The notes: a model not told the origin generated them from the letters alone. Shown: positions 22,090 to 43,005, numbered from the whole stretch's first letter. The stretch is DNA of 63,962 nucleotides, filler included, from Catajapyx aquilonaris (GCA_000934665.2; 3 parts of 3 records of this genome joined end to end with filler, not necessarily neighbours in it); one strand, 5' to 3'. Made by a program: numbers and translations.

Positions 22090-22624
22090 TTACACATTCT
22101 GTAGCCTTATAGAATGAGAATTCAACAATTGTTTTGTCAGTTTTAATCTTAGTTCTTTCTCGGGTCTCTCGAGGATAGAGAATTACAGCGCAGATGTCAG
22201 ATCCCTGGAGCTGTCAGAATTATTGCGTGTAGGTTGGATGCGTTTCGAGTGTTATTTGAAAACGAGGGAAAGAAGTTTCCAGGTGGATGGCGCTTGTACT
22301 CTGAGTCAGATTGTGAGGGCATAGAGCTGCCTGAAAACTGGTCTGCTGTGTACGACAGTAATGGAGATGGTGTGAAAGTGGCATTTCCCATCAGAATGAA
22401 GTGTGGCTTGCGGATGGGACGCAAGTTTTACTCGAAGAATGCAACTGGTGAACTTGGCGGACCCCTGTCCTATCCTCAGGAGTTCTGGTATGTGTACCTT
22501 TCAAGGAGGGCAACATTGTGATGTGACTTAGTGAGGTCTATGAGGAACTGCTGCGTTTGGAACAAATGTGTCGAAAAGCCAGGAAGGATATGGTAGCACT
22601 TCTTGAAGCTAGCCCCCCCCCCCN

Positions 22625-23128
22625 CATTCACCTCACCTTACGCAGTCTCTGGACATCGCTTACTTCCGTCCACTGAAGCGAACCTGGAGGACAGTACTTC
22701 GCTCATGGAAGATGACTGATGAGGGCAAGAAACTTGCAACACTGCCAAAGGATGTGTCTCCGAGGTAGCTAAAGAAGACAATGGAAAAACTGATGAAGAC
22801 TGGGTCTGATAACTTGACAGCAGGATTCCGAAAGGCCGGAATATATCCGTTAAACCCAGGTGAGGTGAAATACCGCCTTCCAAATGCTGCTGCTGTTGGA
22901 GATGACGTGGCTAAATCGGTTGGGGTTACATTTTTGGAGCACCTGCAGAAGTACTGGAGCGAAATTACCAAGATCAAGTCAAGGAAACGCAAGCGCTTAA
23001 GTCCCACCAGGTCAGAGTATCAGCAGAGACGATGTACTGGTACCTGTTGCAGGACCAGGTTCACTTCCACAAGCAAAACAAGGCAGGAAGAAGAAGCGGC
23101 CAAAGAATACTTAGATTTCTTCAGATGA
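22625..23128 (+). mobile_element. pogo/Tigger-type DDE_1 transposase, C-terminal fragment (pseudogenised)
   Basis: HSPHLTQSLDIAYFRPLKRTWR ... TLPKDV.PR*LKK ... NLTAGFRKAGIYPLNP, with an internal stop. Confidence 0.85.
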
Positions 23129-23407
23129 CGACAGCACTGATAATGAGTCGCAGCATGAAAAAAATCCCGTATGCCAGTGACACAGAGTCAGAAGATTTTG
23201 AAGATGAAGCTAAATGTTTAACAGTTGTACTTATTTAAAACGTAATATTTAAAATGAATTTGTTATGTACAATTATTTTTGCAATATCAAAATGAGTTGT
23301 ACCAGATTTGTTTGCTTCCGTTTGGTTGTACTCTCGGAACATGCCATTCCTTCTAGGAATGTGTTGTGCTGGAAATAAACCATTATTATATTTTCACTAC
23401 ATTACAG

Positions 23408-23961
23408 GACCCAGAGGGCAGCTTGTTACAGACACACGACCTGACACAGCAGCACTCTACTGTCATCTCAGCAGCCACAACCCCTATGTGGAGCATCTCA
23501 CTGACAAGAGAGTTATGTCAGAAAAGGCGATGAAGATGTATACAGGGGAAGTGAAGAAGACCCTCAGTGAGTGTCAGGAAATCTGCGACCCAACTCTGAC
23601 ACAAGACAATGTCACGTGGAAACAGGAAAGGAGAAAGCGGATATCAGGCTCTGTATGTTACGGAGCTGTACACCTACGGCAGAAGACAACCTGACTGGAC
23701 AAAGAATATCAATAAGACAGTACACCACGCATTCCGAGGGAACCACAGCATCAGGCACGGAAAAAAATGGGAACCAGTTGCTAGGCAGGTGTATGCCAGG
23801 GAAAAAGATTGTAAAGTTAAAGAATTTGGACTGATCATTTCCACCCACGCTGGTCATGTCTCCAGATGGTGTAATCTTCAAGAACAACAGACCACACACT
23901 TTGCTTGAAATCAAGTGCCCTGACCAACCAGACAGGATGACTGCCTCTGAGTTTATTTCAT
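23408..23961 (+). mobile_element. YqaJ/lambda-exonuclease-like domain fragment (ISL2EU/Kolobok-type accessory gene), frameshifted
   Basis: WKQERRKRISGS ... FRGNHSIRHGKKWEPVARQVY ... EFGLII ... SPDG ... LLEIKCP; AG acceptor at 23406-23407. Confidence 0.85.
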
Positions 23962-23964
23962 GTA

Positions 23965-24183
23965 AGTCGCTCCCAAAAAACCTGTTAACTTCCATTTCAA
24001 AATATCCGCCTGTAAAAGAATAATCATTTCTAAGGAGAGGGGCAAATGCCTGATACGAGGGGAGGCAGCTTTCCGGTCAGATGTTGGGCCAGCTCTCTCA
24101 ATTGTTAAGCGAGGAAAGTCGCTGAAGAACCTTCAGCCGCCTGTTCTGGAAGTGGGGGTTCCAGTCAGTGAGGCTAAAGTGAA
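23965..24183 (+). mobile_element. Sola1-like transposase C-terminal fragment
   Basis: KKPVNFHFKISACKRIII...LIRGEAAFRSDVG...IVKRGKSLKNLQP...GVPVSEAK matches my recollection of the Sola1 C-terminal signature. Confidence 0.55.
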
Positions 24184-24230
24184 TTAAATAAAAATGTAAT
24201 AATGATAGCAATGTGTATCGTCTCCTGCAG

Positions 24231-39965: not shown

Positions 39966-39969
39966 ACAG

Positions 39970-41668
39970 GATGCAAAGATGGGCAAACACATATAATAAA
40001 ATCCCAGATTGGCAGGCGGCTTTCCGAAAAGGGAGAGGTTGCATGGACCATTTGTTCACCTTTCACATTCTAATACAGAAATATTTATCTAAACCAAAAG
40101 GAAAGCTGTATGCTCTCTTTATCGATCTGTCGAAAGCATTTGACTCGGTCAGACATGACAAATTATTCATGAAACTTAGACTGATCGTGTGACCTGAGGG
40201 ATTTTTAGTATTCTCCCGCCTTACACTTCTGCTCCATACCCCGTTTAACTTTAGTGTCATCGATTTTCTTTTGAAGTCAAGGACGTGTTTGCATTCTGTA
40301 TTTGTTATCACTGTGTCCATCATCTACCGCATTGTACTATACCCATCATGCCTTGCAGGGCTGATGGCGTCATCCTGTTCGAACCGAGTATCATTCCCAT
40401 CATGCTCTGTCTGCCCATTCTTATAAATACTTCTTTTCCACCGCTGTAAGAGGCCTTTCGTCAGCGCCCCATGCTGGCGACTGGTCGTCCACATACCGCT
40501 CCTCTCCACATTTCACCCCCATCCTTTTCCTTTTTACGTTGTGTTCTGAATGCGAATAAATCAGTCCAGTGCGATCCCGTTGTTTCATGCATTATTGACC
40601 CTTGCGGTCACAATCGGTATGAGGGATAAGATAATTATATTATTGAAAGACATGTATACTAAAATGGGTATAGTTTCGGAACATAATACAGATCTAATTA
40701 AGATAACAACAGGACTACCACAGGGTGAACCTTTAAGCCCATTCCTATTCAATTTATATTTAGCAGATCTCCATGCAGAGTTAGCAGCCGCAGGTGCTAA
40801 AGGTGTAAATTTTGGACCAGGACAAGAGGAAATTTTGCTATTGGGTTACGCGGATGATATAATACTGATTACAGACAACCCATGTTATATGCAGAGAAAT
40901 ATAAATATGTCAGTGGAATATTTTAGAGAGAACGAGTTACGAATAAATTTAGACAAAACCAAACTTGTTTGTTTCCACAAGGGTGGAAGAAAACCCGGGA
41001 AAATTTTCTTTTGGCAAGATCAAAAAATTAAAAACGAATCATCCTACACTTATCTAGGGGTCCCTTTTAAGTGCTCCGGCAAAATGAACGAGGCAGCGGA
41101 ATTTTTCAAAAGAAAGGCCATAGCTGCAATAAATTCACTCTGGCCTGTCTTCATTAAATTGAAACTTAGAGACCTCACGGTGGCATTGAAACTTTTCAAT
41201 GCCCACATTGTGCCAGTCTTATTGTACGCATGCCCAATATGGGGACCCCAGCACTTAGCAGAGATGCTCCAGGTCCAAACTTACTTCCTGAAGAAGTTTT
41301 TGAATCTACCACGGACGACAGCAGCATATTTTGTCTACTTAGAAACAGGAGTAATTCCACTTACTTTAAATGTCGCTAGAGCAACACTAAAATTTATACT
41401 CAATATAGAAACAAACTCAAAAAATGAACTTCTCAAAGCAGCATACTCATACACTACACAAAAAGAATTAAGTCCAAAAAACAGATTAAATTGGCTGGCA
41501 AGTAGTTCAAAAACCTTCCAACCTCTAGCAGCAAATTGGAAAAAGTCGGCAGATGAGCTCCCAAAAATCCTTGAAACAATTGAACTGGCGCTTAAAAATG
41601 ATTTAATAAACAGACTACAAAAAACTAGTAGATATAAAAGCTACAAAGAAGTAAAAGACCGCGTCTGA
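39970..41668 (+). mobile_element. Non-LTR retrotransposon reverse transcriptase (RTE group, RTEX-like), 5'- and 3'-truncated, split by a solo LTR
   Basis: QAAFRKGRGCMDHLF, FIDLSKAFDSV, GLPQGEPLSPFLF, YADD, YTYLGV, PVLLYACPIWG. Removing 40188-40616 restores KLRLIGMRDK in frame. Confidence 0.93.
40188..40612 (+). mobile_element. Solo LTR (425 bp, Gypsy-type 4-bp TSD)
   Basis: TGTGACC...GGTCACA terminal inverted repeat, perfect ATCG TSD (40184-40187 and 40613-40616), TATAAA near 40423 and AATAAA near 40555 on the + strand. Confidence 0.92.
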
Positions 41669-41673
41669 TTAAA

Positions 41674-41937
41674 TTGCTCATACGGTTTCTCCTTAAACTG
41701 GGTAGCGCTGGAAGAGACTCGTTGCTTCACAGGGCATTTATGTGCAGCCAAAGAACAGTATCGGGGCACAAGAAGTATAAATGCTGGATAGAAAGGGCAA
41801 GGGTGCACCTAGCGGAAGTAGATATTGCTCTCGAATGCCTCGAGGAAACTGACATGGCTGCATCCCTCGCCAAGCTGACTGATAACTGTCACCGGGATGA
41901 CTTACTGAGGCTTAACACAACCACACGGTATATGTAA
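41674..41937 (+). mobile_element. C-terminal fragment of a second, divergent RTE-group element
   Basis: LIRFLLKL....DSLLHRAF....W....DLLRLNTTTRY aligns with TLKFILNI....NELLKAAY....W....DLINRLQKTSRY immediately upstream. Confidence 0.7.
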
Positions 41938-42299
41938 ACCCAATGGGGTAAACTAAATAAAATAAATAATAAAAAATATATAGCATTCATACACAGATTC
42001 TCCTGATGGTATATGTAAGCGAAACAGGTGATTGCACAGTACCAACTCTCTTCTGTCGGTATATTGAAGTTGAATACCCGCAGAAGAGAGATGAAACAAT
42101 CGCCCATTATGTGTAAATTATTTGTAACCTCTACATTTACAGGTTACGAGATTAGTGTAACCCATACGTTATAAGTTTCCTTGACACTTATGTGTTTCAA
42201 GTTACCTGGTAACCACTACTGGTGAAGTTACATTTTTGAAAAAAATGTCACTTCTACTTTGAAGTTACTTGGCTGAGTGTGTGCTCTCATCCGAGGGAG

Positions 42300-42797
42300 G
42301 GTACGGCGCCGGCCGGTACTGTACCAGCTACTTGGCAGACGAGGAGGAGGAAGAGTTTGGAGTGGGGTCTTCACCTATGTTGGTCCCGATGGGGCCAGAG
42401 GAGCCCCTGGTGCATAATTTGGCACCGGGGGTTTACCTGAAGTGGAGGAAGATGCAGCAGTTCGCAGCCAGGAAGAGGAGAGAGGAGGAGAGGCGCCAGG
42501 AGTTGGAAGCGGAGAAAATGGCGTCACTGGCTCTTTACGGCAGAGGGGCCAGGCATCACTTCCGACCTGCTGTTTGACCAACTGACGGTCAGAGCTTTGC
42601 AGTTACAAATGGAGGTGGACCGGATGCGTGGCGAGGAAGAGAAGAGAGGAAGACCACCACGTACTCCGGGCCGGTTTCTGGAGGAGCAGGGCGGCTCGGG
42701 TGAGATCCGGGATGCTGAGAACCGGCAGAACGAACTGGACGAAGAGGCCCGGATGGAGGCACAGGACGAGGAGGACATCCTCGGTGACGTGCAGTGA
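42300..42797 (+). pseudogene. Unknown E/R-rich protein family, copy 2 (one frameshift)
   Basis: TSYLADEEEEEFGVGSSPMLVPMGPEEPLVHNLAPGVYLKWR, then in the +1 frame EGPGITSDLLFDQLTVRALQLQMEVDRMR. Confidence 0.55.
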
Positions 42798-43005
42798 ACT
42801 GTGTGGTGTTTCAAAAAGAAAAAAAAAGAGAAAAAACAATGGGGGGACGAGCCGGTGGCGTTTGTAGTGCTATGTTTTTATCTCATGTTTGAGTGTCCAA
42901 AAAGTGTTTTTCGGACTTGTATTAGTGGGGGGAATTATCAGGATGGGTGGGCTCGTAAGCAAGTGGATGTGGCGCCGCGGCGGTTGGCTGCGTGTGCAGG
43001 TGTCT

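Follow-up and report, generated by a model that had tools for sequence, protein, structure and literature searches.

Whether the transposon remnants in one contig of Catajapyx aquilonaris (GCA_000934665.2) all point one way through a real orientation process or by chance was the question raised by this locus. The window, which is the whole stretch of DNA analysed, was of 63,962 bases and joined three contigs (1-21426, 21527-43005 and 43106-63962) through spacers of the form N44-TTAATTAATTAA-N44. The array of remnants occupied the whole middle contig (21527-43005; 21,479 bp), with N runs and TTAATTAATTAA linkers on both sides. The outer contigs of the stretch were not genomic neighbours of the middle contig, and blastn found no DNA shared between it and either of them. 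A first-pass annotation had read the middle contig as a chain of ~24 transposon fragments in a single orientation, resembling a cluster that produces PIWI-interacting RNA (piRNA). The co-orientation of the identifiable remnants is real. The locus is a co-oriented transposon graveyard and, as far as its sequence tells, possibly a one-strand piRNA source.

Plus-strand remnants of the middle contig

Stop-to-stop open reading frames (ORF) of the middle contig were scanned with Pfam on both strands. The first scan took 203 ORF of at least 50 amino acids (aa; 100 on the plus and 103 on the minus strand) at an expectation value (E) ≤ 0.01 and again at E ≤ 2, and the second took 110 ORF of 40-49 aa at E ≤ 0.1, for a total of 313. 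A scan of 21527-28128 in 12 pieces, with stops read through, proved less sensitive than the ORF scan. An exhaustive HMMER search (phmmer) with the plus frame of 34732-38331 as query, with X at stops, matched 2629 proteins at E ≤ 0.001, of which 232 passed E ≤ 1e-10, and the matches were grouped in three distinct blocks of the query. Of the 150 relatives listed, 20 were put through Pfam (5 carried DDE_Tnp_4, 3 DUF4218 and 12 nothing), and 16 relatives of at least 280 aa were mapped on the whole stretch by tblastn.

Nine of the ~24 pieces named in the first-pass annotation were supported by a tool, two of them weakly, and all nine were on the plus strand; the rest were without support from any search. 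The independent protein remnants numbered eight, five strong and three weaker, and all were on the plus strand (8/8). The claim of a single orientation thus stood for every remnant identified by a tool; the piece count and many of the names did not. YqaJ, both Harbinger pieces and the EnSpm-like piece were found on the plus strand by Pfam or by phmmer and tblastn, as had been proposed.

A remnant of a YqaJ-like exonuclease domain was present in two frames at 23600-24020 (+), as Pfam YqaJ matches in consecutive ORF. The matches at 23600-23905 (E 3.2e-5; profile 44-88) and at 23835-24020 (E 0.0092; profile 89-118) were collinear. An N-terminal remnant of a pogo/Tc1-type DDE transposase at 32518-32841 (+) was weakly matched (Pfam DDE_3, E 0.046; profile 2-46), as was a THAP zinc-finger remnant at 32851-33234 (+; Pfam THAP, E 0.015; profile 17-86 of 87), whose ORF reached 2jm3 in the PDB at no better than E 1.6. 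The THAP remnant directly abutted the DDE remnant. At 32780-32850 (+), the end of the DDE remnant passed into the start of the THAP finger over a few dozen bases, partly in one frame. The DDE remnant was the second of two pogo pieces proposed earlier. The first, a possible C-terminal remnant of a pogo/Tigger-type transposase at 22613-22890 (+), was an unverified motif recognised by eye in a read-through frame, presumably typical of pogo DDE_1 ends, and it had no profile match.

Harbinger/PIF remnant 1 (34777-35166, +) corresponded by phmmer and tblastn to approximately residues 1-160 of a ~400-aa protein. Matches at query block 35-145 reached E 7e-19, and P0108, P0126 and P0136 carried DDE_Tnp_4. 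The CACTA/EnSpm-like remnant (35956-36846, +) was formed by three frame-shifted pieces and covered by phmmer and tblastn approximately residues 119-431 of 677 (E 5e-16; query block 408-680). Its relatives P0121, P0124 and P0117 carried DUF4218, which we take to accompany CACTA/EnSpm-type transposases. Harbinger/PIF remnant 2 (37615-38419, +) consisted of 37615-37893 and 38141-38419, and matched by phmmer and tblastn approximately residues 24-201 of 379 (E 3.5e-15 at query block 946-1058; DDE_Tnp_4 carried by P0025 and P0041). It retained an intron of 265 nt (37883-38147) bounded by GT..AG, whose removal restored the frame; the remnant thus derives from genomic DNA of a transposase gene with an intron and not from a cDNA. 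Remnant 2 broke off early in the DDE domain. The DDE_Tnp_4 domain spanned approximately 167-347 in the relatives, neither Harbinger remnant was a complete DDE_Tnp_4 transposase, and Pfam DDE_Tnp_4 had no match in the ORF scan of the contig itself. All tblastn matches of the Harbinger and CACTA-like relatives fell on the plus strand of the middle contig; its minus strand and the outer contigs gave none. Spacers of ~800 bp in which no family was recognised separated the pieces. The retained intron and these spacers weakened the earlier view that the contig archives coding cores only.

A non-long terminal repeat (non-LTR) element of the long interspersed nuclear element (LINE) type was located at 39392-41934 (+) by Pfam, PDB search and depth. 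Its reverse transcriptase (RT) gave RVT_1 matches at 39392-40189 (E 3.3e-9; profile 34-91) and at 40550-41665 (E 1.9e-18; profile 102-204). Its best solved relatives in the PDB were R2 (1.3e-9) and LINE-1 ORF2p (2e-8), which indicates the non-LTR type. A coiled-coil-like upstream region led into the RT without the first RT motifs; in the ORF it was joined straight to RT motif 2, with no endonuclease domain between. A 429-bp segment inside the RT (40184-40612) was absent from other genomic copies, as revealed by a joint 40183->40613 in the assembled contigs of sequencing runs X1-X3 and by a comparable joint in X5; the segment fell between positions 91 and 102 of the RVT_1 profile. A second, diverged copy of the LINE upstream region (42305-42499, +) paired with 39563-39757 and ran towards the contig end. 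Both copies were on the same strand, with 40% identity over 65 residues by tblastx, and were the one protein-level paralogue pair found by tblastx of the contig against itself. This pair is what had been flagged as an unknown family occurring twice. The two RTE pieces proposed earlier turned out to be two ORF of this one non-LTR element, so that the 15 independent pieces on which the orientation had been assessed were over-counted.

A histone-type 3' stem-loop proposed earlier was recovered on the plus strand at 29921-29965 (Rfam RF00032; E 3.4e-6), its 33.1 bits falling slightly short of the gathering score (34). None of the scanned ORF of the contig, including those beside the stem-loop, contained a histone domain. 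The stem-loop was followed by a purine-rich stretch, and sat in a repeated segment with a word depth of ~180-350.

No remnant was a whole element; catalytic domains were mostly missing and frames were broken. No terminal repeats belonging to the Harbinger, CACTA-like, pogo or non-LTR remnants were found.

In line with the first-pass annotation, which had recognised no transposon motif among minus-strand ORF, none of the 313 ORF gave a transposon family on that strand at E ≤ 0.01. A single transposon-related name came up there, in a doubtful match of 19 residues to HTH_ABP1_N (22641-22910; E 0.031), antisense to the plus-strand stretch judged pogo-like by eye. Pfam matched no hAT, MULE, P-element, LTR-type (gag, protease, integrase) or LINE ORF1 family on either strand. 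Of the families named earlier, hAT, MULE, P, Sola1, NOF, three SAMD3-like pieces, LINE ORF1 and three LTR pieces gained no support from any search. A word-indexed protein search gave no match for 38135-38524 (longer proteins), for 37546-37980 (longer proteins, E ≤ 10) or for 27356-27658 (near length, E ≤ 10). These blanks mean little, because HMMER found hundreds of relatives for 37546-37980 and tblastn matched 38135-38524. The ESM Atlas gave no usable match for 27896-28507 and 24479-24763, and a PDB sequence search with 24479-24763 gave nothing meaningful.

Strand asymmetry, copy number and junctions

Residues in ORF of at least 100 aa in the middle contig amounted to 3308 on the plus strand and 1532 on the minus strand, compared with 533 ± 246 and 857 ± 329, respectively, in first-order Markov shuffles (n = 300). 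The strand difference of +1776 (-324 ± 414 in the shuffles) was reached by none of the 300. Outside the identified pieces, 12 ORF of at least 100 aa were on the plus strand and 5 on the minus strand, which suggests further plus-strand remnants. The hexamer AATAAA occurred 19 times on the plus strand and 4 times on the minus strand, and the difference of 15 (2.0 ± 4.2 in shuffles) was reached by 2 of 1000 shuffles. From 30975 to the contig end there were no minus-strand copies of AATAAA, so that a minus-strand transcript could run on through that part. The probability of one orientation, given earlier as ~6e-5 for 15 pieces, became 0.008 (two-sided) for the eight protein remnants and 0.06 for the five strong ones, before correction for multiple windows.

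The sequencing runs listed for 30000-39999 comprised four DNA runs of one sample, from which the assembly was probably made, together with a small run of unspecified kind. Contigs of runs X1, X2, X3 and X5 were placed on 22190-42189 at a likeness of at least 90%, with X5 covering repeated parts only. These contigs were built from the reads that also gave the assembly, and are thus independent of the assembler and not of the data. Copy number can be read only roughly from their word depth, of which 30-45, the figure for long error-free contigs, was taken as single-copy.

Most depth bins were at 30-100, and those of the YqaJ, DDE/THAP, Harbinger and CACTA-like remnants were at 30-93, near the single-copy depth. 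The repeated parts of the contig were only a miniature inverted-repeat transposable element (MITE), the segments 26859-27525 and 28193-30860, and the LINE RT, the latter being multi-copy in the genome (depth ~320-370 at 40866-41532). At single-copy depth, the DNA-transposon remnants seemed to have no close relatives (at least 90% likeness) left as targets of small RNA. The description of the locus as a CRISPR-like library was weakened accordingly, with relatives found only for the MITE, the LINE and a small number of repeats. The same depth argues against a multi-copy capture element; the contig was mostly single-copy when examined for this, and the Helitron alternative raised earlier lost ground.

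The possibility that the junctions were assembly chimeras was weakened by error-free single-copy contigs, inside which the junctions at ~32780, 35166, 36846 and 38419 fell. A unique contig at 31113-33311 held both the DDE and THAP remnants and spanned their junction, another at 34443-35852 spanned the end of Harbinger remnant 1, a third at 36426-37233 spanned the end of the CACTA-like remnant, and a fourth at 38284-40022 spanned the transition from Harbinger remnant 2 to the LINE. The YqaJ remnant was inside a single-copy contig as well (23164-24183).

Among the repeated parts, the segment at 26859-27525 had approximately 50 times the single-copy depth (~1660-1990), with a repeat edge marked by loose ends at 27122. 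Moderately repeated segments to which no family was assigned extended over 28193-30860 (depth ~180-1140), with joints and loose ends. A very abundant MITE-like element at 33551-33982 had ~115-bp terminal inverted repeats (33551-33664 and 33982-33869; 92%) and TA/TATA flanks; its bin depth was ~52,000-78,000, and loose ends occurred at both edges. A 190-bp direct repeat (33122-33311, +, and 34283-34472; 97.9% over 190 bp by blastn) bracketed, between 33122 and 34472, a 971-bp insert that contained the MITE, and its first copy lay just after the THAP remnant. The repeat pair suggests either a duplication in place or the footprint of an unusual insertion.

A 49-residue ORF at 21845-21991 (+) matched ELAPOR1_C below threshold (E 8e-4; 19.5 bits for a cut-off of 27). 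The match may be due to chance given the 313 ORF scanned; if real, it would mark the left end of the contig as holding the final exon of a host gene on the plus strand.

The outer contigs served as a control. No transposon family was found by Pfam among their 124 ORF of at least 70 aa, in line with the earlier observation that such coding fragments were confined to the middle contig. The first contig contained exons of an SV2-like MFS transporter at 10830-12538 (-), with matches to LD_SV2, Sugar_tr and MFS_1, and a transfer RNA (tRNA) gene for arginine (tRNA-Arg) with an inverted tRNA-Lys pair at 11631-13780. The third contig (43106-63962) had no Pfam match at E ≤ 0.05 in 72 ORF of at least 70 aa. 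Its minus strand had an excess of long ORF over shuffles (1787 aa), reached by 0 of 300.

Explanations of the one-way array

The middle contig may be an old, mostly single-copy transposon graveyard made one-way by the orientation filter of a minus-strand transcription unit, a reading that was preferred with somewhat less than even confidence. The array held truncated pieces of elements unrelated to one another (YqaJ-bearing, pogo-like and THAP-bearing remnants, two Harbingers, a CACTA/EnSpm-like remnant and a LINE family), arranged head to tail, with a few younger repeats dropped in. The Harbinger pieces overlapped in protein coordinates and no missing halves were present elsewhere in the contig, which points to separate insertions followed by truncating deletions. 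A nested-insertion model was rejected, as no remnant had its missing half elsewhere in the contig. The stretch would be part of a minus-strand transcription unit, where only insertions antisense to the transcript would be tolerated or kept; sense insertions would be lost because they bring polyadenylation and splice signals. A one-strand piRNA precursor would qualify as such a unit, and so would a non-coding transcript or a long intron of the ordinary kind. Orientation bias in introns is usually modest, and weak for DNA transposons. An all-or-none bias would fit the piRNA-precursor form better.

Several results weighed against an orientation filter and were compatible with a neutral graveyard, in which ordinary decaying repeats would show a one-way run by chance, helped by selective flagging and by the incomplete independence of the pieces. 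This alternative has a substantial chance of being correct, although it was considered somewhat improbable. Well-supported independent pieces were few (5 remnants strongly and 3 weakly supported), the two LINE pieces were neighbours from a single family, the THAP remnant abutted the DDE remnant, and the remnants were old and single-copy. The number of windows of this genome that were scanned was 316, and the p values above are uncorrected for it; approximately 2-3 chance runs of 8/8 would be expected if every window held eight remnants. A chance run would not be surprising with eight pieces and hundreds of windows. The count of AATAAA on the minus strand was not significantly low by itself (105 of 1000 shuffles), and the excess on the plus strand may correspond to the elements' own A-rich sense strands. 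Against chance, the asymmetry in long ORF was far beyond the shuffles (0/300) and persisted outside the named pieces, and that of AATAAA was reached in 2/1000 shuffles only. The further pieces of the first-pass annotation, if real, would make chance very unlikely. The asymmetries in ORF and in AATAAA argue for more plus-strand remnants, and a real orientation process was for this reason rated slightly above chance.

That the locus is a working one-strand piRNA cluster, in which a long minus-strand precursor would be cut into piRNA antisense to the archived elements, was judged rather unlikely. The complete co-orientation of the identifiable remnants and the few polyadenylation hexamers on the minus strand would agree with it, and one-strand clusters are described in flies (PMC10643416) and in Aedes (PMC7161354), in the available text of both sources. 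The archived DNA-transposon remnants, however, were without relatives at a likeness of at least 90%, leaving nothing present to silence, and it is doubtful that they act in silencing today. LTR/Gypsy content, which drives the bias of flam-like loci, was absent from the 313 ORF. No promoter, host exon or cluster boundary was found within the contig, and the promoter of a minus-strand transcript would lie past 43005, the contig end. The runs listed for 30000-39999 included no RNA run. The visible 21.5 kb was also short against the 227-1085 kb of flam-like loci in the available text of PMC10643416, although the contig may be cut.

More specifically, the contig could form part of a one-strand piRNA source locus whose archive would consist mainly of DNA transposons of the cut-and-paste type (Harbinger, CACTA-like, pogo, THAP- and YqaJ-bearing) and not of retroviruses, in a non-insect-like arthropod and as one of several such loci in its genome; at about one chance in four by our judgement, this too was held to be unlikely.

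Cargo of a capturing element (Helitron or Pack-type transposon) or a chimera from RT template switching, which would also be one-way, was considered very improbable: fragments of unrelated genes did lie in a row in one orientation, with a LINE reverse transcriptase on the 3' side of the array, but most of the stretch was single-copy, so that there was no multi-copy element at a likeness of at least 90% with defined termini and shared junctions, and no long terminal or sub-terminal repeats surrounded the array (no search aimed at Helitron end motifs was made). Template switching was set aside on the intron of Harbinger remnant 2, which excludes copying from spliced RNA; to our knowledge, an array of at least 17 kb with ~10 pieces is also far beyond known template-switch chimeras.

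If a one-strand piRNA source were present, the flamenco principle would also apply to class II elements and to families long extinct, and a compact one-strand cluster made mainly of DNA-transposon remnants would exist outside flies and mosquitoes. A screen for such loci from sequence would then be possible in arthropods lacking RNA data. Otherwise, the locus would be an ordinary repeat graveyard, and fewer than 10 co-oriented remnants in one of many windows would be weak evidence; the lesson would then be methodological, in that names given by eye need profile support.

Comparison with known systems

Clusters of the flam-like type are defined by near-complete strand bias, and in the available text of PMC10643416 they are loci of 227-1085 kb with a discrete promoter, spliced transcripts, one-strand piRNA and a bias driven by Gypsy LTR elements. 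Like Drosophila flamenco and the flam-like loci, the middle contig was a chain of truncated fragments with near-complete one-strand bias and no host gene inside, and 8/8 protein remnants were on the plus strand. Unlike them, it was of 21.5 kb as far as visible, a size limited by the contig, and contained DNA transposons and a LINE with no LTR/Gypsy domain; the comparison was made on sequence alone. Fragments of a flam-like locus would be expected to resemble elements still present or active, and so to have targets; the DNA-transposon remnants were old and single-copy (depth 30-93). The Gypsy/LTR enrichment over hundreds of kilobases that characterises flam-like loci was not seen within the limits of the contig.

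A unidirectional flamenco-like piRNA cluster in Aedes aegypti (PMC7161354) and read-through clusters in mosquitoes (bioRxiv 10.1101/2022.08.22.504762) are reported in the available text of these sources. Like them, the middle contig was a locus of a non-Drosophila arthropod with co-oriented fragments derived from genomic parasites. In the same text, the mosquito clusters are defined by data on small RNA and on transcripts and hold many elements of viral origin, in contrast with the middle contig, where no such elements were found.

The Harbinger/PIF, CACTA/EnSpm-type and non-LTR remnants matched N-terminal or middle parts of DDE_Tnp_4, DUF4218 and RVT_1 proteins. Orientation bias relative to the host transcript, such as the antisense bias of retroelements, is known in introns. 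Unlike in ordinary intronic bias, all identifiable pieces of the middle contig agreed in orientation and no host exon was visible. Like ordinary graveyards, it consisted of decayed, truncated and mostly single-copy remnants, together with younger MITE and LINE insertions.

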